From Candidatus Heimdallarchaeota archaeon (GTDB lineage Archaea; Asgardarchaeota; Heimdallarchaeia; Heimdallarchaeales; Heimdallarchaeaceae), in assembly GCA_016839945.1 (NCBI GenBank), contig JAEOTE010000141.1, forward strand, positions 1 to 19,235: a stretch of DNA of 19,235 nucleotides. Direction: 5' to 3'. Of this stretch, positions 1,664 through 18,387 are shown in pieces (within the stretch, counting starts at the first letter, position 1; the number at the start of each line of letters is the position of its first letter). The translations under genes and the position numbers were made by a program. The notes under the pieces are model-generated. The model saw nothing but the letters and a program-made list of their open reading frames with translations, did no database searches and was not told the DNA's origin.

Positions 1664-1939
1664 TTGCCATATCAGAAAACAATTACAGAATCATATTGGA
1701 CAGTATGTTGGAAATGGATATTCCCTTACCCTTGTAAGAAAACCAGAAAAGTAACAAAATGGTGCTATGATTTCGAATCTATTCATATCTATCATTGGCT
1801 ATTCTTCTGCATTTTCTATGGATGTGAAAATAACATTGAATATAGATGGGCTGAATTTTGTATAGGGATAGGATCAAGTTGGGTTTACAATAAAACAGTA
1901 TGTAAGAAAAAGAAACTTAAAGTTTCAGGAAAATGTTAG
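1664..1939 (+). CDS. Small cysteine/aromatic-rich cationic protein of unknown function
   Basis: 91 aa ORF with a perfect SD and TTG start; 8 Cys, 7 Trp, net charge about +9; no hydrophobic signal peptide; followed by T-tracts. Confidence 0.8.
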   Translation: MPYQKTITESYWTVCWKWIFPYPCKKTRKVTKWCYDFESIHIYHWLFFCIFYGCENNIEYRWAEFCIGIGSSWVYNKTVCKKKKLKVSGKC

Positions 1940-2064
1940 ATATTAATTGTTAACCATTTGAAAAGTAAGAATAAACTCTATATAATTCATGAATAATATT
2001 CAGAGAATAGTGAAATACCAAGCTAGCCTATTGTACTAAAAACATTTAATTTCTTAATAAAACA

Positions 2065-2112
2065 AAAAATATTTTTCTTTTTTTATTTCTATTATTTTAT
2101 TAGTTTTTCTTT
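2065..2112 (+). terminator. T-rich archaeal-type terminator region
   Basis: AAAAATATTTTT palindrome at 2065-2076 followed by several oligo-T runs, downstream of the 1664-1939 CDS. Confidence 0.4.
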
Positions 2113-2160
2113 CCTTAAATTAAATTCTTTTGACAAATATTTTAAAATGAATAAACATAA

Positions 2161-2433
2161 TTGTATTTAGTGACAAAATTGACTAAAGAAAAAATAGGTG
2201 AAGTTTTCAATTTTTTTGTAAAACCTAGTGTTGCAGCTATAGATATTTCAGGAGAGATAAATGTTGGTGATAAACTACAGTTTTTAGGTGCTACAACAGA
2301 TTTTGAAATGGTAATAAAATCAATGCAGATAGAAGGAGAAGACGTAGAAACTGTTAAGAAAGGTCAGAAAGTTGGAATAAAGGTTCCTGAAAGAGTTCGA
2401 CCTACTGATGAAGTTTATAAAATTGTAGAATAG
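2161..2433 (+). CDS. Translation elongation factor-like protein (stand-alone EF-Tu domain II / U32 C-terminal-type beta-barrel); true start may be 2170 (GTG) or 2179 (TTG)
   Basis: Pattern IGEVFNFFxKPSVAAI...VGDKLQFLGATTDFE..IKSMQIE...V....KGQKVGIKVPERVRPTDEVYK is characteristic of this ~85 aa family. Confidence 0.82.
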   Translation: MYLVTKLTKEKIGEVFNFFVKPSVAAIDISGEINVGDKLQFLGATTDFEMVIKSMQIEGEDVETVKKGQKVGIKVPERVRPTDEVYKIVE

Positions 2434-2457
2434 AAATTTCCTAGATTTGATTACAGT

Positions 2458-3024
2458 TCACATTTTATCCATTTCTAGCTGATTTACTAACCAAGTAAAA
2501 GCAGCTAATACTCCTTTACCAGTTAGAGCACTACAATCAAAAACTGCAAAAGTTCTATCTTTCATATCAAGATGTAAACTTAACAGCTGAATCATTAAAG
2601 GTGCTTGAATCGCGCTAGGAAGATCTTGTTTATTAGCAAGAATAAGAGTTGGTACTTTTTCAACAAGTGGGTTGTCAAATACATGAATTTTAAGTATATC
2701 TCGAGCTTCAGGAAGACGTTCTATATCCGCTGCATCTATGACAAAAATTACTGCACTACAACCAGGATAATGTATATCCCACAGAAATCTGAATTGTTGT
2801 TGACCTGCTACGTCAACTGTTGTGATATCCCAACCTTCATAGTTTATAGTTTCAATGTTTTGACCAATTGTTGGAGTTAGTCCTGCTTGAAAGTATCCTG
2901 TGTTAACGTACTTAGTTAAAGTAGTTTTACCAGCAGCATCGAGACCCAAAATAAGTATTTTAGCCCTTTTTTCTGCTCGTAATTTCTTTATCAACCATTG
3001 AGAAAAGTTGGACATAAAGCTCAT
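2458..3024 (-). CDS. Arf/Sar-family small GTPase (Asgard Arf-related)
   Basis: G1 GLDAAGKTT, G2 PTIG, G3 DVAGQ followed by FRFLW, G4 ANKQD, G5 CSA. ATG at 3024 gives an amphipathic N-terminus, MSFMSNFSQWLIKKL, and is more plausible than the ORF-track start at 3048. Confidence 0.95.
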   Translation of the reverse strand: MSFMSNFSQWLIKKLRAEKRAKILILGLDAAGKTTLTKYVNTGYFQAGLTPTIGQNIETINYEGWDITTVDVAGQQQFRFLWDIHYPGCSAVIFVIDAADIERLPEARDILKIHVFDNPLVEKVPTLILANKQDLPSAIQAPLMIQLLSLHLDMKDRTFAVFDCSALTGKGVLAAFTWLVNQLEMDKM

Positions 3025-3162
3025 GTAATTTCTCCGTCTGTTTAACACATCTAATTGTAGCTTGATAATATTTCTAATTTGATTTATGTAAGTTTTGTTA
3101 TGAAGTCATATGGTTTTAGCTTAAAAAATCTATACTAAAATCTTCCTTAAAATGTTGTAATT

Positions 3163-3177
3163 AAAAAAATAAAAAAA
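3163..3177 (-). terminator. Oligo-T terminator (minus strand) for the 3884-3213 gene
   Basis: A7-T-A7 on the plus strand (T-tracts on the minus strand) about 35 nt past the stop codon. Confidence 0.5.
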
Positions 3178-3212
3178 GAGAATTTTTGTTGTTTTTGTTT
3201 GTCCATTAGCAT

Positions 3213-3884
3213 TTAATGTTCTGGTGGTCCTTGTGCTTTCATTCTTTCTAGGAACTTCTTATTAGGTCCAAGTTGCCATTTAAGGAATATTAGTAAGAAT
3301 ACTATGATGATGATTGCTAATATCCAAGCTTTCCAATAAGCATCCCAGAAATTAATCCAAGTCCAAGCATAAGACCATGCAACTGCTGCAGGAGCTCCTT
3401 CTAAAACAAGAAGATTGAAGAAAGGAACGAATCCTGATAGTGGAATAACAATCATTGTATCTACTAAGAGACCCCAAATCCAAAACTTCCATGATTTCTT
3501 AGAAAACATGAGTTCTCTTGGACTAGATGCTCTAAAGTCTGCTCTGAAATCATATTGTGCCATGCTCATTGTTAATGGTCCTATTATGAAAACAAAGAAG
3601 ATCCAAGCAATTATGAATGAAACTAAAAAGCCCCATCCTAGATACGCAAAATATCTTCCTACCGGATTGGGAAGTAGTGTCCACCAATCTCTTACTGCGA
3701 AAACTATAGCAGTGACAATCGCTGTCATGAGTAAAGCAAACCAAAATATTAACCATTCAGCAAAGTAAGTTGTTGCCATAAATTTACCTTTTGCTCCGTT
3801 TGCAAAGATAGTTCCGCGTCCTTTGGTTTGAAAGTGAAAATAGTCCCATGGCCATTTAAATCCTTTTTTTTCTTGATCTGTCAT
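3213..3884 (-). CDS. Trp-rich integral membrane protein, about 4 TM helices, possibly two tandem DUF2798-like units
   Basis: Hydrophobic segments FALLMTAIVTAIVFAV, LGWGFLVSFIIAWIFFVFIIGP, WIWGLLVDTMIVIPLSGFVPFF and YWKAWILAIIIIVFLLIFL; 18 Trp in 223 aa; SD-like AAGTGA upstream of the ATG. The DUF2798 resemblance is from memory. Confidence 0.75.
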   Translation of the reverse strand: MTDQEKKGFKWPWDYFHFQTKGRGTIFANGAKGKFMATTYFAEWLIFWFALLMTAIVTAIVFAVRDWWTLLPNPVGRYFAYLGWGFLVSFIIAWIFFVFIIGPLTMSMAQYDFRADFRASSPRELMFSKKSWKFWIWGLLVDTMIVIPLSGFVPFFNLLVLEGAPAAVAWSYAWTWINFWDAYWKAWILAIIIIVFLLIFLKWQLGPNKKFLERMKAQGPPEH

Positions 3885-4177
3885 TTAAATCACTTTTGAT
3901 TTTTTTATGAAATCAATTTTTTTAATCGTCAGAAATTCTGTTTATAGCTGAAATAGATATTATTGTTATATTGTATTGTGATGAATTTCAAAGCAAACAC
4001 ATTTCATTAAGACGATAAAACGTTGTCTCTTTTTGCATTTATAAAAACTTTATCTCAATCTATTTCTTACTTCACAGAGATATGTTTACATGGATATGGA
4101 ATATGAGTAACGATTTTTTTCCTTATGAATTAAAGACAAAATCATGAAGAGAAAAGAGAAAAGAATGTGTTATGGAA

Positions 4178-5011
4178 TCAAGTAAGTTTTTCTTTAACTA
4201 CATCAAATGTTCGATTTTTTGATCTGTTAAAAAGAAGTTCAAAGTTATCATAAGGTTCATAGTCTAATATTGGAAAATCTTTAGCTTTTTCAAGATCTTC
4301 TTTCTTTTCTCCTTTATTGACAAAATTCTCTACCCATTTAACACATTTTTCCATATAATCAAGTTGTTCTTGCATCGCTTCAATATCAGATACAGGTCCA
4401 TGTCCAGGAACAATTATCTTAGGTGATAATTTTATCATTTCTTTGTAAGCTTCAATCCATAAATAAGGATCAGCTGTATCATCTCCAAAATATGGTACTT
4501 CTTTTGCGAATAGTAAATCTCCTGCAATAAGCACTTCCTCTTCAGGTATGAAAATAAAACTAGAACCATTGGAATGACCATTGGTTTGTTTGATTTTCAA
4601 AGTTAGATTGTCATCAGTTATAGTATACTCTCCTTCAAATGTCTTGTTAGGTAAAACAATTTGTAATTCTGAAAATGATTCAGGTTCTCTTTTTCTTAGG
4701 TTTTCAGTATTGTCTTCAGTCCAATATGCACTTAGGATTTTTAAAACAGGCTTTGATGAGATTATTTCACAGTCTTCAAACACTTGATTACCAAGAATAT
4801 GATCGCCATGGTGATGAGTGATTAAAAGCTGTTTCACAGTTAAACCTGTAAGCTCTTCTGCTTTTTTTCTAGCTTCTTCTATAACTTTGGGATAATATCC
4901 AGAATCAATAAAGACAAGTCTATCCTTTAGCTTAACAAAAGCTACATGACCGAAAGTATCTCCTTTGGTGTGTGCCCAAACAGATTCTGTAATTTTTTCA
5001 AATTCAAACAT
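4178..5011 (-). CDS. Metallo-beta-lactamase-fold hydrolase (cyclase-like subgroup)
   Basis: FIDSG, THHHGDHILGN (HxHxDH), GHS, AGDL and PGHG motifs. Start at ATG 5011 (MFEFEK) removes the overlap with the upstream gene. Confidence 0.92.
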   Translation of the reverse strand: MFEFEKITESVWAHTKGDTFGHVAFVKLKDRLVFIDSGYYPKVIEEARKKAEELTGLTVKQLLITHHHGDHILGNQVFEDCEIISSKPVLKILSAYWTEDNTENLRKREPESFSELQIVLPNKTFEGEYTITDDNLTLKIKQTNGHSNGSSFIFIPEEEVLIAGDLLFAKEVPYFGDDTADPYLWIEAYKEMIKLSPKIIVPGHGPVSDIEAMQEQLDYMEKCVKWVENFVNKGEKKEDLEKAKDFPILDYEPYDNFELLFNRSKNRTFDVVKEKLT

Positions 5012-5066
5012 ATTAATCGCGATTACTTCTTTAGAATACTTATATGGATTATGGAGAAAACTACCT

Positions 5067-6449
5067 CTAAATAGAAAATTGAGGTGTGATAAACTTTCCA
5101 TAACCTTGATTTACATGGAATTGTCCTTCACCATAAACAATTTCTCCTCTAACAATTGTTGTCTCTATTTTCCCTTTTAGTTTCCATCCATCAAAAATGG
5201 TAATTTTTTGTTTTGTAAACATATTCTCATTTCTCAAGATATATTCTTTATTCATATCTACAATGAACATATCAGCATCTGCATTTATTGAAATTGTACC
5301 CTTTTTAGGGAATAAACTAAATCGTTTTGCTGGTGTTGAGGAAGTCACCTCTACTAATCTCTGTAAAGATAATTTCTTCTCATTTACAGCGTTTAATAGA
5401 AGAGGAATCATGGTTTCTAATCCAGGAGTACCAGAACCAACCCCGAAAATCCCTTTATTATCATCTTTGGTTTCTTTCTCTTCATGGCTATAGGGTGAAT
5501 GATCTGTTGCTACAATATCAATAGTTCCATCATTCAGTGCAATCCAAGCAGCTTCCATATGTTTCTTTGATCTTATTGGTGGATCAGATTTTGCCCATGA
5601 ACCTATTTTTACGGCATCATCAGATGTTAAAAACAAATGATGTGGAGTAATCTCACATGTTACATCCCACCCTTTTTGTTTAGCTTTTCTAATAAAATCA
5701 AAAGCATTCTTTGAACTCATATGTACAAGATTTAACTTCGCTTCTGCACTATTCGCTAATTCTATAGCTCTAGTACAAGCTTCATCTTCTGCAATTGATG
5801 GACGAGAGTCAGTATGTGCTTGAAAGTCTATTCTCCCTTGAGATATCACCCTTCCTATTTCGTTTTGTATTATAGAATCATCTTCTGCATGTACACTACA
5901 AACTAGTCCTACACTAGATATTTTTTCTAGTATTTTAAGAAGATATGATTCATTTTTTGCTGAAAGGTCTTTAAGTTCATACATCTCATCTGGTGCATCT
6001 AACATGAATGTCTTGAATGCAATAGCTCCCTTTGAAACTAATTCATCTATTGAATCAATACTAGTATATCCACCTGATCCAATAAGTCCAAAATCGACAA
6101 TACTTCTTTTATTCATAGCATCTAATTGAATATCAAAAGATTCAACAGCTGTTTTGCCTTTGATTCCCATTGGCATTTCTAAAAATGTGGTTATTCCTCC
6201 AGAAGAAGCTGCTTGAGTTCCTGTATTGAAGTCTTCTCTATAAGAAAATTCTAAATCTAATATATGTGTATGGACATCTATTCCACCAGGTAGAATAATT
6301 CGATTATTTGCATCAATAGTTTTCTCTGCCTTTGGTAGTGTACTTGTTTTCCCAATAGCAATTATTTTATCATCATCAATACTTATTCCTGTTTCGATCA
6401 ATCCATCTTCTAGGAATACTTTACCATTGATGATGTTCAAATCAGCCAT
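5067..6449 (-). CDS. Cyclic amidohydrolase (hydantoinase/allantoinase/dihydroorotase family), closest in appearance to L-hydantoinase HyuH
   Basis: PGGIDVHTH, GGITT..EMP, carbamylated-Lys position AFKTFM, VHAED, LVHMS, PPIR, ATDHSP, KGTI..NADAD. It lacks the dihydroorotase HxHxR Arg and the MPNT Asn. Confidence 0.88.
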   Translation of the reverse strand: MADLNIINGKVFLEDGLIETGISIDDDKIIAIGKTSTLPKAEKTIDANNRIILPGGIDVHTHILDLEFSYREDFNTGTQAASSGGITTFLEMPMGIKGKTAVESFDIQLDAMNKRSIVDFGLIGSGGYTSIDSIDELVSKGAIAFKTFMLDAPDEMYELKDLSAKNESYLLKILEKISSVGLVCSVHAEDDSIIQNEIGRVISQGRIDFQAHTDSRPSIAEDEACTRAIELANSAEAKLNLVHMSSKNAFDFIRKAKQKGWDVTCEITPHHLFLTSDDAVKIGSWAKSDPPIRSKKHMEAAWIALNDGTIDIVATDHSPYSHEEKETKDDNKGIFGVGSGTPGLETMIPLLLNAVNEKKLSLQRLVEVTSSTPAKRFSLFPKKGTISINADADMFIVDMNKEYILRNENMFTKQKITIFDGWKLKGKIETTIVRGEIVYGEGQFHVNQGYGKFITPQFSI

Positions 6450-6537
6450 TTTTTTCTACCAAATGTATTTTTTTGCAGTACTTTTATTTTAAAGTAGAAT
6501 AATATATCTTTAAGTCTTCGTAAGGAATGAACTAATC

Positions 6538-7923
6538 ATGCAAAATAAAACAAATACTCCTATCTTTTCTGGTGCACATCCTGCTGAAGTAAAAAATGAT
6601 CTCCTACCACTTGTAAATTTCCAAAAAGAAGGAATTTCAACTGATAAACTTCGAAAAATGATAGAAGAGAGATTACTTCCCCATTTAATGAATTACAGTC
6701 ATCCAAGTTTCTTATCTATGTTTAATGATATTCCAGAAGAAGGAGCAAAAATAGGAGCAGAAATAGCACTAGAGTATAATCAAGGGGTTACTGATTGGCA
6801 TGTATCTCCAGGTGGAGCTATGCTAGAAGAATTATGTATCAAAGCTCTATGTTCTCTCTTCAAACTAGATGAGAACTCTGATGGTACGTTTATGTATTCG
6901 GGAACCTATGCGAATCAGCAAGCATTATATCTAGCACTTCATTGGAAAGCTGAACAGGAAGGATTTGATTTTGCAAAACTAGGATTGAAAGGATTTAAGA
7001 ATCCAGAACGATTAGTGGTTTTAACTTCAATTGATGCTCATTTCTCACTTAAACATGCAGTAAGAATTTTAGGTTTGGGAGATAACAATTTACTAACACT
7101 AGAAGTAAATGAAAAAAGAAGAATAGATATTCATCAGATGAAGAAAAGAATTCCTAAATTGCAGGAAAATTATGATATATTCTGTGTTACAGCAACTACT
7201 GGAACTACTTCAACTGGATCAATCGATAATGTTGAAGAACTCTCTAAACTTTGCAAAGAAATTGGTGCTTGGTTACATGTAGATGGAGCCTATGGTTTAG
7301 CATATTCATTAGTTCCGGAATATAGAGAGAGATTTGCCGGTATTGAATTGGCTGATTCTGTTTCTTGGGATCCTCACAAACAATTTGGAACACCTATTCC
7401 TAATTCTATTCTTTTTATTAGACGTAAGGAGGATTTTGATCGAATTGCATTGCGTAGTGATTATATTTATCGTAAGGGAAAAAGTGTACCTAGTCCTGGA
7501 TTAAAATCTCCTCCATCAACTAGACCATTTTCTGCATTACCTTTAGTTACCTCAATTTTATATCAAGGAATCACTAAACTTCAAGAAAGACTTAGGTCCC
7601 CTATTCAAGCAATAGAATCTATTTACAACTTACTGAGGACTGACTCAGAAATTGAACTCTGTAATAAACCAGAAACAGGGATTCTTTGTTATCGTATCAA
7701 ACACAATCAAATTTCTGATGACCAAATGAACCAATTTATGAAATTGGTTTACGAGGAAGTTATATCCGAAGGAAAGCATTCAATATCATTTACCAAATTA
7801 GGAGAAAAAGCTGTTCTTAGGTTAGTTGCAATTAAACCAACAGCAGCAGAAACTTTAATGAAAACTATTGATTATGTAAAAGAGAAAGCTAGATCTATTG
7901 CAAGCAGAGGAATTTCAAAATGA
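6538..7923 (+). CDS. Group II PLP-dependent decarboxylase (DABA decarboxylase Ddc / aromatic amino acid decarboxylase family)
   Basis: SGTYAN, AHFSLKHA, ATTGTTSTGSID, WLHVDGAYG and the PLP lysine in SWDPHK. Confidence 0.92.
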   Translation: MQNKTNTPIFSGAHPAEVKNDLLPLVNFQKEGISTDKLRKMIEERLLPHLMNYSHPSFLSMFNDIPEEGAKIGAEIALEYNQGVTDWHVSPGGAMLEELCIKALCSLFKLDENSDGTFMYSGTYANQQALYLALHWKAEQEGFDFAKLGLKGFKNPERLVVLTSIDAHFSLKHAVRILGLGDNNLLTLEVNEKRRIDIHQMKKRIPKLQENYDIFCVTATTGTTSTGSIDNVEELSKLCKEIGAWLHVDGAYGLAYSLVPEYRERFAGIELADSVSWDPHKQFGTPIPNSILFIRRKEDFDRIALRSDYIYRKGKSVPSPGLKSPPSTRPFSALPLVTSILYQGITKLQERLRSPIQAIESIYNLLRTDSEIELCNKPETGILCYRIKHNQISDDQMNQFMKLVYEEVISEGKHSISFTKLGEKAVLRLVAIKPTAAETLMKTIDYVKEKARSIASRGISK

Positions 7924-8591
7924 AGATATTAATTATTAATCCAAATAGTGATTTGGATATGACAAAAGCAATTCAGGAAACTGCTAATTCATTCATAGAT
8001 AGTGAAGTTAAGGTTATATGCAAACACACACTAAATGCACCAAAATTTATTGAAACCTATGAAAATCAAATCGAAGCTGCACCTGGTATGATTGATCTAG
8101 TGAAAAAAAATGAGAAAGAATATGATGGTTTTATTATTGCATGTCATTGTGACCCAAATCTCGATACAATGAAAGAAATAACAGAAAAACCTATTGTAGG
8201 TATTGGTGAAGCTTCCATGAAATTGGCTTCATTTTTAGGTCACAGTTTTTCAGTTATTTCAATGACAGAACAATCTATACCAAATAAAGAAGCTTTAATT
8301 AGGAAATATCATCTTCAAGATTCTTTAGCTTCAGTGAGAGCACCAGAGAAAGATATGAGTGGGAAAAGTGATGAAGAAATATTTTTTGAAGCATCAAAAA
8401 CTGCAATAGAGAAGGACAAAGCAGAAGTTATTGTGCTAGGTTGTGCAGGAATGACTGGATTGGATAAAAAACTAGAAAAGAGATTGGGTGTTCCTGTACT
8501 AGATGGAGTAAAATGTGCATTAATTATTTTAATTGGATTAATCAGATATGATGTTTCAACAAGCAAAATTCGTAGATATAAATCTTCATAG
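7920..8591 (+). CDS. Hydantoin/allantoin racemase (Asp/Glu/hydantoin racemase family)
   Basis: MKILIINPNS...MT, two catalytic Cys (IIACHCDP, VLGCAGM), PIVGIGEAS, GVPVLDGV, TSK. ATGA start/stop overlap with the decarboxylase at 7920-7923. Confidence 0.92.
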   Translation: MKILIINPNSDLDMTKAIQETANSFIDSEVKVICKHTLNAPKFIETYENQIEAAPGMIDLVKKNEKEYDGFIIACHCDPNLDTMKEITEKPIVGIGEASMKLASFLGHSFSVISMTEQSIPNKEALIRKYHLQDSLASVRAPEKDMSGKSDEEIFFEASKTAIEKDKAEVIVLGCAGMTGLDKKLEKRLGVPVLDGVKCALIILIGLIRYDVSTSKIRRYKSS

Positions 8592-8598
8592 CTTGAAT

Positions 8599-9975
8599 CT
8601 AATTCATCTCTGTTTCGATCTTTTCAATTGATTCTATACATATGTCAATCCCTGTTTCAGCTAATTTCTTTGTTATAATTAGCGGAGGTAAAAATCGTAG
8701 CACATTATCGTAATGACCACCTATTTCTATGATAACTCCTCTCTGAAACATTTCATCCCTAATTTTTGAACAAAGTTCTGATGAGGGTTTCTTTGTTTCT
8801 TTATCTACAACTATTTCAATTCCTATCATTAGTCCCTTTCCTCTAACTTCACCAACAATCAAAGAATCCTTTTCAACTTTTTCTAACTTCTTTAGAAGAT
8901 AGTTTCCTAGCTCTTTAACATAGCTTGCTAGATTATTTTCTAACATAAAATCTATAGATGCTGAACCTGCAGCCATAGCTGTTACATTCCCTCTGAATGT
9001 CCCTATATGAGCAGCTTTTGACCAAACATCTAAATCTGGTCTATATGCTATTGCAGAGAGAGGATAGCCTCCACCAAGAGCTTTAGATAAGGTAATAATA
9101 TCTGGTGAAGATCCTGAATGTTCAGATGAGAAAAACTTTCCTGTTCTGCAAAATCCTGCTTGGATTTCATCAAAAACTATAGGAATTTCATATTTATTAC
9201 TTATCCCTGCTATTCTCTTTACAAAACTATTATGTGGGATAATAGATCCACCTTCACCTTGTATTGGTTCTATAATTGTCATCGCTGGGTCAACAACACC
9301 TGAATGAGGATCTTCTAGAATGTGCTCATAATAATCTGCACAAGCATTTGCACAATCTTCAGCTGTTTTTGTTTTAAATGGGCATCTGTAAGAATAAGCA
9401 AAAGGAACAAAATGGACTTCGGGAATAAGTGGAAGGTAATTCTTTTTCCAAGATTTTCCAGAAGTTAACGCGAGAGCGCCTGATGTCATCCCATGATATG
9501 CTCCCTCAAAAGCGATAATTCCATGTCTTTTAGTGATAGTTTTTGATAATTTTATTGCACTTTCAACTGCATCTGATCCAGTTGGTCCACCAAAGACGAT
9601 TTTGGAGTTGTTTTTCAATTCTCCGGGTAGAATATTCTGTAATTTCTGCACTAGTTCTAAACGAATCTCTGTAGGAAAATCTAGAGTGTGTGTTATATTC
9701 TTTTGAATTTCATTTACTTTTTCTGCTATGGATGGATTACAGTGACCTAAAGCTAGAACACCAGCTCCACCAAAGAAATCAATGAAAATATTTCCATCAA
9801 CATCTTTGATTGTAGCTCCATGTCCTTGAGCAAAGGCAATAGGAGAACCTTTAGGATATGAAACAGGTTTTCCTTCAATCCTCTCTTGTAAATCTAATAT
9901 CTTCTTGGATTTAGTGCCAGGTATAGTTTCTTTTATAATTGGAGCTTCTTCAAAACTTAGTTCATCAAACTTCAT
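8599..9975 (-). CDS. Class III aminotransferase, diaminobutyrate--2-oxoglutarate transaminase (Dat/EctB)-like
   Basis: IDFFGGAGVLALGH, HTLDFPT, GPTGSDAVESAIKL, AYHGMT, EPIQGEGG, FDEIQAGFCRTG, PLP Lys in LSKALGGG, and HIGTFRGN (Dat/EctB-type signature). Start set at ATG 9975 (MKFDEL). Confidence 0.9.
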   Translation of the reverse strand: MKFDELSFEEAPIIKETIPGTKSKKILDLQERIEGKPVSYPKGSPIAFAQGHGATIKDVDGNIFIDFFGGAGVLALGHCNPSIAEKVNEIQKNITHTLDFPTEIRLELVQKLQNILPGELKNNSKIVFGGPTGSDAVESAIKLSKTITKRHGIIAFEGAYHGMTSGALALTSGKSWKKNYLPLIPEVHFVPFAYSYRCPFKTKTAEDCANACADYYEHILEDPHSGVVDPAMTIIEPIQGEGGSIIPHNSFVKRIAGISNKYEIPIVFDEIQAGFCRTGKFFSSEHSGSSPDIITLSKALGGGYPLSAIAYRPDLDVWSKAAHIGTFRGNVTAMAAGSASIDFMLENNLASYVKELGNYLLKKLEKVEKDSLIVGEVRGKGLMIGIEIVVDKETKKPSSELCSKIRDEMFQRGVIIEIGGHYDNVLRFLPPLIITKKLAETGIDICIESIEKIETEMN

Positions 9976-10048
9976 TCTGTGAAAAATTTTCTCTATTATA
10001 TTAAAATCTTGGGTGACATTAATATACACCATCGATTTTTCTTACTGT

Positions 10049-10900
10049 ATGAAAAACAAAATTGCAATTGTTACAGGTGCAAATGCAGGAATAGGAAAGG
10101 CAACAGCACTCAAATTAGCTGAAATGGGTGCTCATGTAGTAATGGTTTGCAGAAACAAAAAAAGAGGAGAAAAAGCTCTTCTAGAAATTCAAGAAATAGC
10201 AAACAAAAAGAATCTGGATTTAATGTTGTGTGATTTTGCATCTTTGAAATCAATAAACAATTTTGTGAAAGAATTCAAAAACAAATACCAGAGACTTGAT
10301 GTACTTATCAACAATCATGGTCTTGTTTCACTTATCAAGTCTAAAACTGAAGAAAAGATAGAAACCACTTTTGCAGTCAACCATCTAGGTTATTTTAGTT
10401 TAACTCTTCAATTACTGGATGTGCTTAAAGCTTCAGCTCCTTCAAGAATTGTCAATGTATCTTCTAGCGCTAATTACAGGATTAGAAAATTAGAGATAGA
10501 TGATTATAATTGTGATAAGAGAAATTATCAGTTCATGAAAGCTTATCAAGAATCAAAGTTGTATAATATTATGTTCTCTTTTCTCCTTGCAGAGAAATTG
10601 CAAGGAACTAACATTACTGTTAACTGTCTTCATCCAGGTTTTGTGAAAACACAAATAGGATTGAACAACTTTTTTCTCAAACTACTTACTCCGTTAGCTA
10701 AGTACAAAGGTGTTACTCCTGATGAAGGAGCTAGGACTTCTATTTATCTAGCTACTTCTCCTGAAATGGAAGGAGTTACAAGTAAGTATTATCATAAAAT
10801 GAAGGAAAGAGATCCAAACAAACTAGCATTTGATAAAGAAGCACAAAAGAAATTATGGAATTTAAGTTTAAAACTTACTAATCTTCAATTTAATATATAA
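10049..10900 (+). CDS. Short-chain dehydrogenase/reductase, retinol dehydrogenase-like (RDH11-14/WWOX-like subgroup)
   Basis: TGANAGIG, CRN, DVLINNHG, FAVNHLGYF, RIVNVSS, catalytic YQESK, LHPGFVKT, GARTSIYLATSP. Start set at ATG 10049. Confidence 0.93.
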   Translation: MKNKIAIVTGANAGIGKATALKLAEMGAHVVMVCRNKKRGEKALLEIQEIANKKNLDLMLCDFASLKSINNFVKEFKNKYQRLDVLINNHGLVSLIKSKTEEKIETTFAVNHLGYFSLTLQLLDVLKASAPSRIVNVSSSANYRIRKLEIDDYNCDKRNYQFMKAYQESKLYNIMFSFLLAEKLQGTNITVNCLHPGFVKTQIGLNNFFLKLLTPLAKYKGVTPDEGARTSIYLATSPEMEGVTSKYYHKMKERDPNKLAFDKEAQKKLWNLSLKLTNLQFNI

Positions 10901-10907
10901 TAGGTTT

Positions 10908-10921
10908 AAAAAAAATAAAAA
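10908..10921 (-). terminator. Oligo-T terminator (minus strand) between convergent genes
   Basis: A-tract on the plus strand 15 nt beyond the stop of the 12952-10937 gene. Confidence 0.45.
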
Positions 10922-10936
10922 TAGTAAGGGAAATCA

Positions 10937-12952
10937 TTACAGTTGAATTTCTATCCAGTAAGCAGGATGATCTGATTGTCCCCTTTCTATATACACCGCA
11001 TCAAGAACGGTGATTCCTGAACTGAGGAATATATGGTCAATTCTATCTGCTGCTGTTCCCCATTTCTGTACCCAGGAATCTTCTAAAACTCCTACTGTTA
11101 TATTATATGATTCTGAGTTAGGTCTGAAATTAAAATCTCCACCAAAAATAACGTTATCTAGACCAGAAGTTTGACTTAATATTTCTTCTATTTGGTATCT
11201 TTTAGCTTCATCACCTCTTGCAGCAGGATGGCTCGAAAAAACATTGAATGACAATGTAGAATTGAAAGTTATTTGTGCTTGGGTTGTGCTTATTTGTTGA
11301 TGGGTACTATAAACGAAGAATGCCTTTGCATTTGAGATAGGATATTTTGATAAGATTGCAGTACCATATGTATTTGTAACAGTCTTCGCTCCTCTGTAAG
11401 AATACATATTTAATTTATCAGCGAGATACCTAACAACATCCGAGTTTCCTCCTCCTATTCTAGCAGTATCGCTTTCTTGTAAACAAATTATATCAGGATC
11501 AACACTTCTAATTAGTTCCAGTTGTCCATCATAATTTTTTTCACCTGTGAGGTTTACTCCTAGCCTAATATTATATGACATAATAATTAGAGATGTTTTT
11601 CCTTCATCTGGTTCAACAGGATGGGGGGCTGTAACAAATGCACCTACAAATGTTCCTAAAAATATCAACCCGAGGATTGTAAGAATAATTGATTTGGATT
11701 TAATATCTTTAGCTGCTTTTTCAAAGCTTAATGTACTCTTCTTGAACAGAAAAACAGGGATTGTAACAAACAATCCTGGTATTAGAAAAGCTAACCAATA
11801 CATATCTCTGAATAAAGTACTGATTGGTGGCATATATCCCCATACATTTGGGAAGACTTGCAGGAAGATTACTATTATGGCATACAAACCTGCTCCTAAA
11901 GCAAAACTTCCTCCAACTTTTGCTGGCTTTGGTTTTATTCTTAGTAACTCTATTGATAAAAGAATAAAGTCTATGTAAATTATAGGGGATAGAAGTATCA
12001 TTAAAATTAAGGGGATTTGATGTGCAGAAGTAGTTGATGCAGCTATAATAGGATATAAAGTATGATTATCAGGGAAGAAAATTCCATAAGTCGGAATAAT
12101 TTGATGTACTAATACTGTCAAAGTAAGAGAGAGTGTAAATAATCCATTCCATACCCAAAGCATCCACGATTTGATTTCATTCAGCAAATTAGGTTTTAAT
12201 ACCATTACAATGATGAATAGAATTATCATCACTAAAACACCTAAAACAATTCCTATGTAATTACCCTCTGTCCATCTCGAAATAACAGTTGGACTCATAA
12301 AAGTAAACCAGACAATTATAAAGACACTTGACAAACCAAGAGTTAGAAGTAGTATGCGACCAAAGCTTGCAGTTTTTCCTTCTTCTAATGATTCTTTCTG
12401 AACAACCTTCTCACTTTTCAGTAACATACCAACTAACATAAATGACGCTACTATTCCTAGTATCCAGCCAATAATCTGAAACCATCTATAAATTGAAACA
12501 TCTAGTGTCGAGTTAATTGTTCTGAAAAGTAAAGATAATACTACAGCTAAAGCTAAAGATATTCCCAGCGTTACACCAGTTTGTTGCTCTTTGTTTTTAC
12601 CTCTTGTGAAATATGCAGGAAAGAAAATAAGAAAACTACTAACAGACAGTCCAGCTAATATCAGCAGAGCTTCTCCTTTAAGTAAAGGTTCTATTAATCT
12701 AGTTATAATGATCAGCTCTCCAACTATAAATAAAGTCTTATCTGATATTTCCTTTCTAAAGAAGAATAAACCTACTGAGGATAATAAGAATAATAATGCA
12801 AGAATATGTAATGTAGGTTTCAATCCTAGAATAGCATAATCAAAAATTCTTTCAGCTAAATCTGAAAGCATTTGAATGAAAAATAAAAAGATTACACTAA
12901 ACAGGATAAATTCTGAATAATTGTTCTTAATAAGATTCTTAAAATCAATCAT
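10937..12952 (-). CDS. Polytopic membrane protein with C-terminal endonuclease/exonuclease/phosphatase (EEP) domain; Cwh43/PGAP2-interacting-protein-like
   Basis: About 440 aa of closely spaced hydrophobic helices (roughly 13), then EEP motifs SYNI, DIICLQESD, YGTAILSKYPI, GGDFN, RIDHIF, SDH. The stretch ESDTARIGGGNSDVVRYLADKLNMYSYRG resembles Cwh43. Confidence 0.85.
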   Translation of the reverse strand: MIDFKNLIKNNYSEFILFSVIFLFFIQMLSDLAERIFDYAILGLKPTLHILALLFLLSSVGLFFFRKEISDKTLFIVGELIIITRLIEPLLKGEALLILAGLSVSSFLIFFPAYFTRGKNKEQQTGVTLGISLALAVVLSLLFRTINSTLDVSIYRWFQIIGWILGIVASFMLVGMLLKSEKVVQKESLEEGKTASFGRILLLTLGLSSVFIIVWFTFMSPTVISRWTEGNYIGIVLGVLVMIILFIIVMVLKPNLLNEIKSWMLWVWNGLFTLSLTLTVLVHQIIPTYGIFFPDNHTLYPIIAASTTSAHQIPLILMILLSPIIYIDFILLSIELLRIKPKPAKVGGSFALGAGLYAIIVIFLQVFPNVWGYMPPISTLFRDMYWLAFLIPGLFVTIPVFLFKKSTLSFEKAAKDIKSKSIILTILGLIFLGTFVGAFVTAPHPVEPDEGKTSLIIMSYNIRLGVNLTGEKNYDGQLELIRSVDPDIICLQESDTARIGGGNSDVVRYLADKLNMYSYRGAKTVTNTYGTAILSKYPISNAKAFFVYSTHQQISTTQAQITFNSTLSFNVFSSHPAARGDEAKRYQIEEILSQTSGLDNVIFGGDFNFRPNSESYNITVGVLEDSWVQKWGTAADRIDHIFLSSGITVLDAVYIERGQSDHPAYWIEIQL

Positions 12953-12998
12953 AAATAGTGTCTTTTATTAGCTTGTATAAAAATAATCTGAGTGTTTC

Positions 12999-13016
12999 TC
13001 ATATCAGAAGATATGA
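12999..13016. promoter_or_regulatory. Perfect 7-4-7 inverted repeat TCATATC-agaa-GATATGA, candidate operator
   Basis: Seen directly, 46 nt upstream of the start of the Cwh43-like gene. Confidence 0.45.
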
Positions 13017-17301: not shown

Positions 17302-18387
17302 TCATTTTTTTATTCTTTTGTACAAATACACAAGAGGAATAATGACAAGGATTCCTGAGCTGAAAATTATTATGAAATATCCCCATAATGGAAAACTTCC
17401 AGTATAGTGTGATTTCATATAAGATTCTATTGTCTGTCCTATTATTTTCAAACTCTCAGAATCTATATTATCTAAATTATCAGAATGAGTATGGTGGTAA
17501 TTCCATTCACCATTCATAAAATCAATTATCAAATCTACTGCAGGTATTCCATAATCCTTGAAAGCTATATGATCATCTATTACTGATATTTCAGTTGGAT
17601 TAAGTGGAAATGCACTGCTGTATCCTAGCTTTCTGCCTTCCCTAAATATTCGATTATGTAAAATCAAATCCGAATTAGTCTCTCTAGTAAATATAAGATC
17701 AGTTCCTCCTACCATGTCAAGTAGAATGAAGCTGTTAATTTTTTCTGATTTTGAATCATAGAATTCTTCTATATCATCAACGAATTTCATAGATCCTTCA
17801 CACCAATCCCAGAATTCTAATCCATACATCCCTAGAGAATATCCTTGATCTTCTGCATCGAGAAAAAGAAACCAAATTTGACAATCTAAGTTGTCCTTGT
17901 AAAGTGAAAGAACTCTAGATAACTCTATAAGTACAGCTACTCCTGAACCCCCGTCATTAGCTCCAGGAATTGGTTGACTTTGATTATACGTATCTTTTTC
18001 CGCAACGTTTCGTGAATCCCAATGAGCTCCTAGAATAACAATTTTAGTTTTGTTTGTATTGATTTTTCCTAAAATATTTTGACAATAATAATTTGGTTGA
18101 CTTTCTTTTTGGATTGAGAAATCATGAACAAAAACTTCATCGGCATAAGTCTGCATTTGATCTACTATCCAATCTGCACAATTATTATGAGCAGTTGTTC
18201 CAGGAACCCTGAAACCAAAATCTAATTGTGAAGAGATATGATTATATGCATTAGACTCATTAAAAATTAGAGAATGGGATTTTGCAGAAACAAAAGGGTT
18301 TTGGGTAAAAGCTAAACTAAAAACGAATAAGAACAATAATGCTAGAGTTAAGTGAGTTTTATGATATTTCAAGTAGGCATTGCCCAT
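17302..18387 (-). CDS. M28-family Zn enzyme, glutaminyl cyclase-like, with signal peptide and C-terminal TM anchor
   Basis: FGFRVPGT, LGAHWDSR, GANDGGSGVAVL, LDAEDQG, LLDMVG, DDHIAF, HHTHSD; hydrophobic N-terminus; C-terminal TM followed by KRIKK. Confidence 0.9.
   Translation of the reverse strand: MGNAYLKYHKTHLTLALLFLFVFSLAFTQNPFVSAKSHSLIFNESNAYNHISSQLDFGFRVPGTTAHNNCADWIVDQMQTYADEVFVHDFSIQKESQPNYYCQNILGKINTNKTKIVILGAHWDSRNVAEKDTYNQSQPIPGANDGGSGVAVLIELSRVLSLYKDNLDCQIWFLFLDAEDQGYSLGMYGLEFWDWCEGSMKFVDDIEEFYDSKSEKINSFILLDMVGGTDLIFTRETNSDLILHNRIFREGRKLGYSSAFPLNPTEISVIDDHIAFKDYGIPAVDLIIDFMNGEWNYHHTHSDNLDNIDSESLKIIGQTIESYMKSHYTGSFPLWGYFIIIFSSGILVIIPLVYLYKRIKK

Follow-up and report, generated by a model that had tools for sequence, protein, structure and literature searches.

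We describe a gene cassette in a contig of Candidatus Heimdallarchaeota archaeon (JAEOTE010000141.1), which was analysed over its whole length of 19,235 bp and is called the window in the following; the genome comprises 3.0 Mb and is 88% complete. Four genes, encoding a cyclic amidohydrolase, a group II pyridoxal 5'-phosphate (PLP)-dependent decarboxylase, a putative hydantoin/allantoin-type racemase and an omega-aminotransferase, form the cassette, while the adjoining genes for a metallo-beta-lactamase (MBL)-fold hydrolase and a short-chain dehydrogenase/reductase (SDR) are mere neighbours. A functional connection of the ureide-opening pair to the decarboxylase and the aminotransferase, in a core of three to four genes, is supported. 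We consider it somewhat more probable than the opposite that this is a horizontally mobile catabolic cassette, which converts a racemic cyclic ureide to a basic or ureido amino acid and further via the amine to the aldehyde. What the data show is gene association, namely co-occurrence, gain and loss as a block and matching trees; the chemistry is deduced from that of the enzyme families.

The six genes and the region between the divergent pair are as follows:

4178-5101, minus strand: MBL-fold metallo-hydrolase, probable start 5011 (Pfam Lactamase_B, 2e-22)
5067-6449, minus strand: cyclic amidohydrolase of the hydantoinase/allantoinase/dihydroorotase group, core member (Pfam Amidohydro_1, 3.7e-25)
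6450-6537: AT-rich divergent intergenic region of 88 bp between amidohydrolase and decarboxylase, as read from the sequence
6538-7923, plus strand: group II PLP-dependent amino-acid decarboxylase, core member and cassette marker (Pfam Pyridoxal_deC, 8.6e-46)
7920-8591, plus strand: two-cysteine racemase, putatively of the hydantoin/allantoin type, core member (Pfam Asp_Glu_race, PF01177, 1.8e-45)
8599-10032, minus strand: class III (omega-)aminotransferase, probable start 9975 (Pfam Aminotran_3, 3e-91)
10013-10900, plus strand: SDR, probable start 10049 (Pfam adh_short, 2.2e-38)

An earlier note on this DNA had described these six open reading frames (ORFs) as one unit. Their coordinates and families are borne out, with Pfam E-values from 2e-22 to 3e-91, and the spacings of 55, 88, -4, 7 and 73 nt given there are reproduced when the internal starts 5011, 9975 and 10049 are used. 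The ATGA overlap of the decarboxylase stop and the racemase start is likewise present in the sequence (7920-7923). Both putative promoters of the divergent pair presumably reside in the 88-bp region. Such close packing is ordinary for a compact archaeal genome; a part of the block exceeds chance because it is conserved in other genomes, not because of its spacing.

Conservation of the gene cassette

We searched 60 related genomes with the racemase of the window, extracted approximately 16 kb per match and mapped all window proteins onto these loci. Racemase orthologues with 65-88% identity occur in 15 of the 60 genomes. Any racemase match at all was obtained in 10 of 24 congeners, and the distribution is therefore patchy. 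A locus was regarded as informative when the orthologous decarboxylase was flanked by 3 kb or more in both directions (n = 18). In these, the decarboxylase is accompanied by a cyclic amidohydrolase in all 18 cases, by the racemase in 16, by the aminotransferase in nine and by a symporter in four. Loci carrying orthologues come from three families of Heimdallarchaeia (f1, the family of the window, f5 and f6), from Aminicenantes, Acidobacteriota, Anaerolineales, Promineifilaceae and Gemmatimonadota, and from unbinned metagenome contigs.

Wherever a heimdallarchaeal locus is not cut by a contig end, amidohydrolase, decarboxylase and racemase occur together. Families f5 and f6 keep this trio in a rearranged gene order. 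The aminotransferase gene is adjacent in 11 out of 11 loci of f1 and in none of f5 or f6; among the bacterial loci it was found in L041, L044, L045 and L046 (52-56% identity). The bacterial genes are ordered as hydantoinase, decarboxylase, often a symporter of the AGCS Na+:alanine family, and then racemase. One of the bacterial arrangements is the Gemmatimonadaceae operon L046, which encodes on one strand an aldehyde dehydrogenase, the aminotransferase, a D-hydantoinase, the decarboxylase, a Na+:alanine-family symporter, the racemase and a YgeY-family M20 protein. Between archaea and bacteria, orthologues share 51-69% identity for the racemase, 46-59% for the decarboxylase and 52-56% for the aminotransferase; for the window and the Aminicenantes locus L041 the values are 69%, 56% and 56%, respectively.

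The link between a ureide half and an amine half, as suggested in the earlier note, is thus recovered in two domains of life by the constant partners of the decarboxylase. Within the amine half this holds for the decarboxylase, which is always linked, and only in half of the informative loci for the aminotransferase. Adjacency is conserved for the core of three to four genes and not for the MBL and SDR genes. The ATGA coupling of decarboxylase and racemase, which had been regarded as the strongest physical link, is not conserved, and many bacteria carry a transporter gene in between.

Only in the closest relative, G016, is the MBL gene located next to the block; it lies beyond the gene of an Arf-like GTPase in G004 and is absent from approximately 30 other cassette loci. 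The MBL hydrolase is thus an incidental neighbour and no conserved cassette member. The SDR gene is adjacent to the cassette in the window, G016 and G015, and a 32%-identical SDR is found in the Gemmatimonadaceae locus L047. It is a variable neighbour rather than a conserved member, and a function as aldehyde reductase is possible.

Gain, loss and transfer as a block

In the genus of the window, the four-gene block is located between the Arf-like GTPase gene and the gene pair unk246/unk314 (L023, L031). In G017 the Arf gene lies directly beside unk246, which represents the empty site. It brackets the four genes and excludes the MBL and SDR genes, and the cassette borders in G021, G010 and G006 also fall inside the MBL and SDR positions. 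The genome G024 retains only residues 170-458 of the amidohydrolase, i.e., the 289 C-terminal residues without the metal-binding N-terminus, and lacks decarboxylase, racemase and aminotransferase. This remnant is situated at 14169-15041 of L220 (G024:C39) beside a gene with an EEP domain, and approximately 4 kb in the place of the lost genes hold unrelated small ORFs. Within the genus, the quartet behaves as a single block in gain and loss.

The earlier note had asked for congruent gene trees. Here, the same groups emerge from the trees of decarboxylase and racemase, and archaeal clades are interspersed between bacterial ones. Furthermore, the congener G006 contains two cassette copies of different lineages (L027 = G006:C76 and L032 = G006:C110). 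The f1-type copy includes the aminotransferase, whereas the f6-type copy lacks this gene; the estimated contamination of this genome is 8%, and the two copies could reflect either a second acquisition or a binning mixture. The matching trees, the interleaved clades and the two lineages in G006 therefore point to a horizontally mobile module which has probably been transferred as a unit, also between domains.

Enzyme families of the cassette

The closest PDB match of the amidohydrolase is 1GKR, the L-selective hydantoinase HyuH of Arthrobacter aurescens (280 bits, 2e-82), versus 227 bits for the best allantoinase structure. The ligands of the binuclear metal site (HxH, carboxylated lysine, two histidines, aspartate) align. 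With NCBIfam models, the scores for allantoinase, dihydroorotase, ErtD and D-hydantoinase all lie at approximately 330-346 bits, each below the equivalog cut-off; the allantoinase models reach 343.8 versus 357.85 (TIGR03178) and 346 versus 631 (PRK06189). The amidohydrolase of the bacterial cassettes belongs to another subfamily, is 28% identical to that of the window and passes the cut-off of TIGR02033 (D-hydantoinase/dihydropyrimidinase). Both types carry an acidic loop after the carboxylated lysine, DAPDEMYELKD in the window and YREEGL in bacteria, and, if these are the substrate-gate loops, they would suit a cationic substituent. A distinctive signature marks the subfamily of the cassette-linked bacterial hydantoinases (e.g., L046 6346-7692): SDDAAYS replaces the SDH of archaeal and other hydantoinases, and the HxH motif is followed by FND.FMNT.

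For the decarboxylase, no orthologue in the alignment deviates at the PLP lysine (HK 280-281), the stacking His168, Asp249 or the loop Tyr309, and this group II enzyme should therefore be a true decarboxylase. Nearest among solved structures are diaminobutyrate (DABA) decarboxylase 2qma, with approximately 30% identity, and lysine decarboxylase DesA (5o5c). It reaches 142.6 bits on the Ddc equivalog NF052646 with its cut-off of 900 and is not a Ddc equivalog. Orthologues are 46-84% identical, the next relatives at most 33%, and a tree separates the group from outgroup group II decarboxylases on a long branch with 99% support. Many public matches share 57-61% identity, some of them from Aminicenantes and Theionarchaea.

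The best PDB matches of the racemase are an allantoin racemase (5lfd, 9e-32) and a putative hydantoin racemase (3qvj, 1e-26). Cys75 and Cys175 are invariant in eight orthologues, and the predicted class is that of the two-cysteine hydantoin/allantoin racemases. The two informative loci that lack the racemase both stem from Chloroflexota. Its slot is taken here by a gene of the AroM family (PF07302, of unknown function), which lies immediately upstream of that for the hydantoinase:

L042 5792-6454: AroM-family gene
L043 4558-5229: AroM-family gene

A profile comparison of these Chloroflexota AroM proteins with the racemase yields a probability of relatedness of only 5%. Both loci also encode a PPDK_N/PEP-utiliser protein of 906-912 aa nearby.

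The aminotransferase scores 409 bits on TIGR00709 'dat', the family model of diaminobutyrate transaminases (cut-off 401.6), and remains below all equivalog cut-offs, with 473 versus 671 for PRK06938 and 323 versus 552 for EctB. In G055, a genome of family f5, an orthologue (65%) is convergent with a YgeY gene and lies beside genes of the polysaccharide deacetylase and ADI/DDAH families. This context suggests a general omega-amine role in the catabolism of ureido and guanidino compounds.

Carbamoylases and YgeY-family hydrolases

Neither an M20 nor a nitrilase-fold carbamoylase is encoded in the window, where the sole protein of the M20 clan is an M28 peptidase (17302-18387). The absence of a carbamoylase, as noted earlier for this DNA, is a general trait of the cassette core: the core contains none, and no linked one was found in approximately 25 loci of several phyla. 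TIGR01879, which covers L-carbamoylases and the allantoate amidohydrolase AllC, has no match in any of 61 Heimdall genomes, the genome of the window included. The latter encodes approximately eight other M20 proteins and three nitrilase-like CN_hydrolases, none of which matches a carbamoylase model. Unlinked TIGR01879 genes are present in four of five bacterial cassette genomes.

A linked ureidohydrolase occurs in only one of approximately 30 cassette loci, namely the YgeY-family M20 protein of L046 (506 bits, cut-off 321). The window holds neither a YgeY-family M20 protein nor a YgeW carbamoyltransferase, and the best score of the YgeY model in its genome is 199 bits. Above the cut-off, YgeY-family members were found in 17 of the 61 relatives, among them only 7 of the 15 cassette genomes; the two do not co-occur tightly. 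In the reductive urate pathway, YgeY is the ureido-cleaving hydrolase that follows HyuA (10.1101/2025.05.19.654654; 10.1101/2025.04.24.650524). The two preprints disagree on which ureido group it cuts (10.1101/2025.05.19.654654 versus 10.1101/2025.04.24.650524). HyuA accepts 5-ureido-dihydrouracil, and YgeY was reported to be active on albizziin (10.1101/2025.05.19.654654).

Related genes were also observed apart from the cassette in two genomes:

L217 (G004:C107:96000-115000), 1831-5862 and 8953-13000: creatininase-family, MobA-like, XdhD-like, YgeY-family, OTCase-family and amidohydrolase genes of a congener
G055:C9, ~614-637 kb (L036 6518-11328, L216 7365-12593): racemase-paralogue and aminotransferase-YgeY clusters of a family f5 genome

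In L217, the XdhD-like molybdenum hydroxylase has 877 aa, the YgeY-family M20 protein scores 618 bits and the OTCase-family gene is YgeW-like; the cluster resembles the reductive 2,8-dioxopurine urate pathway, of which it may be a heimdallarchaeal version. In G055, a racemase paralogue (41%) lies beside a D-type hydantoinase, an OTCase-family gene and a PALP enzyme, and the aminotransferase orthologue is located approximately 17 kb away.

Proposed pathway and alternatives

We propose the following order of reactions. The racemase would equilibrate the configuration at C5 in a racemic, 5-substituted cyclic ureide, a hydantoin or dihydropyrimidine, and the binuclear-metal amidohydrolase would open the ring, whereby the carboxylate arises next to the C5 carbon. 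An amino acid, probably basic or ureido-bearing (diaminobutyrate, diaminopropionate or albizziin-like), would then be at hand at once or as soon as an unlinked or lineage-specific enzyme has removed the carbamoyl group, and would be decarboxylated to the amine. The omega-aminotransferase may turn this amine into an aldehyde and pass the nitrogen to glutamate or alanine. The aldehyde would finally be handed to the partner enzyme of the particular lineage, the aldehyde dehydrogenase in Gemmatimonadota and possibly the SDR in the window.

As to the type of amino acid, the nearest solved decarboxylases use diaminobutyrate or lysine, the aminotransferase passes the 'dat' cut-off and the loops of both unrelated amidohydrolase types are acidic. 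The catalytic residues are kept throughout, i.e., the metal ligands of the amidohydrolase, both cysteines of the racemase, and the PLP lysine and loop tyrosine of the decarboxylase. The order of chemistry suggested in the earlier note has a counterpart in one operon, L046, where hydantoinase, ureidohydrolase, decarboxylase, aminotransferase and an aldehyde enzyme are encoded together.

Several points weigh against this proposal. The product of a hydantoinase normally bears an N-carbamoyl group on the alpha-nitrogen and cannot be used by a PLP decarboxylase, and neither a core carbamoylase, nor a TIGR01879 match in the 61 Heimdall genomes, nor an above-cut-off YgeY protein in the genome of the window is at hand to remove it. 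The archaeal (nominally L-type) and bacterial (nominally D-type) amidohydrolases are only 28% identical, which would be awkward if the opened product retained a stereocentre for the shared decarboxylase to read. The interpretation of the acidic loop presumes that it is one of the substrate-gate loops. Nine of the 18 informative loci have no aminotransferase, and no known substrate fits every step. Finally, the bacterial transporter belongs to an amino-acid symporter family and not to NCS1, which comprises the known permeases for hydantoin and allantoin.

That a carbamoylase is consistently lacking leaves room for an alternative in which none is needed. Here the ring would already carry an amino group beside the scissile carbonyl, as in 5-amino-5,6-dihydrouracil, which might derive from reduced purines or pyrimidines, and ring opening would directly yield a free alpha-amino acid. 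Albizziin (3-ureidoalanine) would be decarboxylated to 2-ureidoethylamine, which transamination would convert to ureidoacetaldehyde and oxidation to N-carbamoylglycine, from which a YgeY-type enzyme would release glycine in some lineages. A dedicated PLP decarboxylase would thus be fed by the hydrolysis of a cyclic ureide or imide with an alpha-amino group. This would constitute a new branch of anaerobic catabolism of N-heterocycles (reduced purines or pyrimidines) that Heimdallarchaeia have exchanged with bacteria of sediments and soils. To our knowledge this is the sole nameable class of dihydropyrimidinase substrates whose product has a free alpha-amine. The route agrees with the lack of linked carbamoylases in several phyla and of TIGR01879 in the Heimdall genomes, and it gives every enzyme of L046 a role, with the YgeY-family enzyme acting last. 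A small cationic ring compound would match the amino-acid-type symporter and the presumed acidic gate loops, and the reported activities of HyuA on 5-ureido-dihydrouracil and of YgeY on albizziin are compatible with it (10.1101/2025.05.19.654654). Against it, no XdhD, SsnA or YgfK gene is linked to the cassette, the yield of nitrogen and carbon is poor without the final ureidohydrolase that most loci lack, and the idea is inferential throughout. Moreover, we know of no natural source of 5-aminodihydrouracil. We regard this route, as well as the carbamoylase-independent branch that it implies, as an unlikely candidate, with about one chance in its favour for every four against.

It is rather improbable that the block merely unites two unrelated functions, a Dat/Ddc pair whose 1,3-diaminopropane goes into polyamines or siderophores, and an independent pair, allantoinase and allantoin racemase, for the opening of allantoin or hydantoin rings. 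The 'dat' score of the aminotransferase, the DABA decarboxylase as the nearest solved relative of the decarboxylase, the allantoin racemase as the best racemase structure and the 344 bits of the amidohydrolase on an allantoinase model (cut-off 358) speak for such a mixture. Yet the decarboxylase keeps amidohydrolase and racemase where a Dat-like gene is lacking (the Heimdall families f5 and f6, L119, L120, L122 and L129), gain and loss affect all four genes jointly, and the decarboxylase attains 143 of the 900 bits demanded by the Ddc equivalog. Furthermore, no allantoate amidohydrolase was found among the 61 relatives, and the amidohydrolase resembles HyuH more than it does allantoinases.

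Least probable of all is a six-gene pathway with the MBL hydrolase as the missing carbamoylase and the SDR as dedicated terminal reductase: the MBL gene is co-oriented with the amidohydrolase gene 55 nt downstream of it and three Heimdall genomes and one Gemmatimonadaceae locus have an SDR gene beside the cassette, but the rarity of the MBL gene at the cassette loci, the empty site of G017 and the borders in G021, G010 and G006 all contradict it, and the best families of the MBL protein, SoxH-related hydrolases (113 bits in NCBIfam) and beta-lactamases, score far below their cut-offs.

A beta-alanine hub, fed by dihydrouracil and aspartate, was considered as well and dropped as the main reading, since a beta-ureidopropionase is missing from the core and the racemase does not belong to the aspartate racemases. 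Further candidate substrates would be hydantoin-5-propionate, which would lead to glutamate (GABA shunt), amino-lactams of DABA or ornithine, and the ectoine or DABA derivatives named in the earlier note.

Flanking genes and further observations

Outside the six genes, two features of the window flank the block:

2458-3048, minus strand: Arf-family small GTPase (PF00025, 1e-43)
10937-12952, minus strand: multi-pass membrane protein with a C-terminal endonuclease/exonuclease/phosphatase domain as in PGAP2IP (PF23226)

Both proteins are eukaryote-like, as is typical of Asgard genomes. DNA of the window is contained in four marine-sediment metagenomes of one study, probably the source sample; among the listed data sets containing it, there is no RNA dataset.

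A PLP enzyme of Cys/Met metabolism (PF01053) flanks the cassette in the unbinned metagenome locus L119 (7076-8254, plus strand) and in the Anaerolineales locus L042 (9554-10816, minus strand). A conserved protein of approximately 155 aa without a Pfam family, with the motif ISFQLGMINCFVEMV.CGVKKLA.SPP, is encoded inside or beside the cassette in one Heimdall and three bacterial loci:

L028 6341-6814, minus strand
L044 2883-3356, plus strand
L120 10096-10563, plus strand
L127 2377-2874, plus strand

It was not found in the genome of the window, and a look-up in the ESM Atlas returned unnamed clusters only. An Rfam scan of ten bacterial cassette loci for riboswitches gave no match at the gathering score.

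Comparison with known systems

The hyu cluster of Arthrobacter aurescens comprises the permease hyuP, the racemase hyuA, the L-hydantoinase hyuH and the L-N-carbamoylase hyuC. The cassette shares with it a non-ATP cyclic amidohydrolase closest to HyuH and a two-cysteine racemase of the predicted hydantoin type. It differs in that no M20 L-carbamoylase is present in the cassette or in the 61 related genomes, in that a group II PLP decarboxylase is always and an omega-aminotransferase often included, and in the use of a D-hydantoinase/dihydropyrimidinase-type enzyme by the bacterial cassettes. An NCS1 permease is not evident among the window ORFs in general scans, which did not include a search for PF02133.

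With the Dat/Ddc route, the cassette has both enzyme families in common, for the aminotransferase at the level of the family model and not of any equivalog. In contrast to that route, the aminotransferase and decarboxylase genes of the window are convergent and not co-transcribed, and the constant partners of the decarboxylase are amidohydrolase and racemase, not the aminotransferase. Allantoin degradation differs from the cassette as well, as the amidohydrolase remains below the allantoinase cut-offs and AllC (TIGR01879) is found in none of the 61 relatives.

In the searchable literature we found no description of a cluster of hydantoinase, racemase and decarboxylase, and nothing relevant on hydantoinases in Asgard archaea or Aminicenantes. 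As a close precedent we found only the reductive uric-acid pathway, which was described in 2025. Its lower part (HyuA/YgeW/YgeY/YgeX, via 2,8-dioxopurine) likewise combines opening by a hydantoinase with a PLP enzyme that consumes a diamino or ureido acid (10.1101/2025.05.19.654654; 10.1101/2025.04.24.650524), and the Gemmatimonadaceae cassette L046 includes a true member of the YgeY family. Unlike this pathway, the cassette carries no XdhD, YgfK, SsnA, YgeW or YgeX genes and contains a racemase, and decarboxylase and aminotransferase replace the diaminopropionate ammonia-lyase. Purine-catabolism genes were sought around the long bacterial cassette loci, and none were found.

Systems of hydantoinase and racemase are familiar in biocatalysis, while their natural substrates are mostly unknown. 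A constant, dedicated decarboxylase and the lack of a carbamoylase, across Asgard archaea and at least four bacterial phyla, therefore indicate a natural cyclic ureide with a breakdown that departs from the textbook. If true, the carbamoylase-free route would add a new enzymatic logic for the opening and consumption of nitrogen-rich rings under anoxia. The phyla in question were sampled from sediments and soils, and the cassette represents a defined set of three or four enzymes that can be expressed and screened. It also provides a clear case of the transfer of a metabolic module across domains into Heimdallarchaeia.

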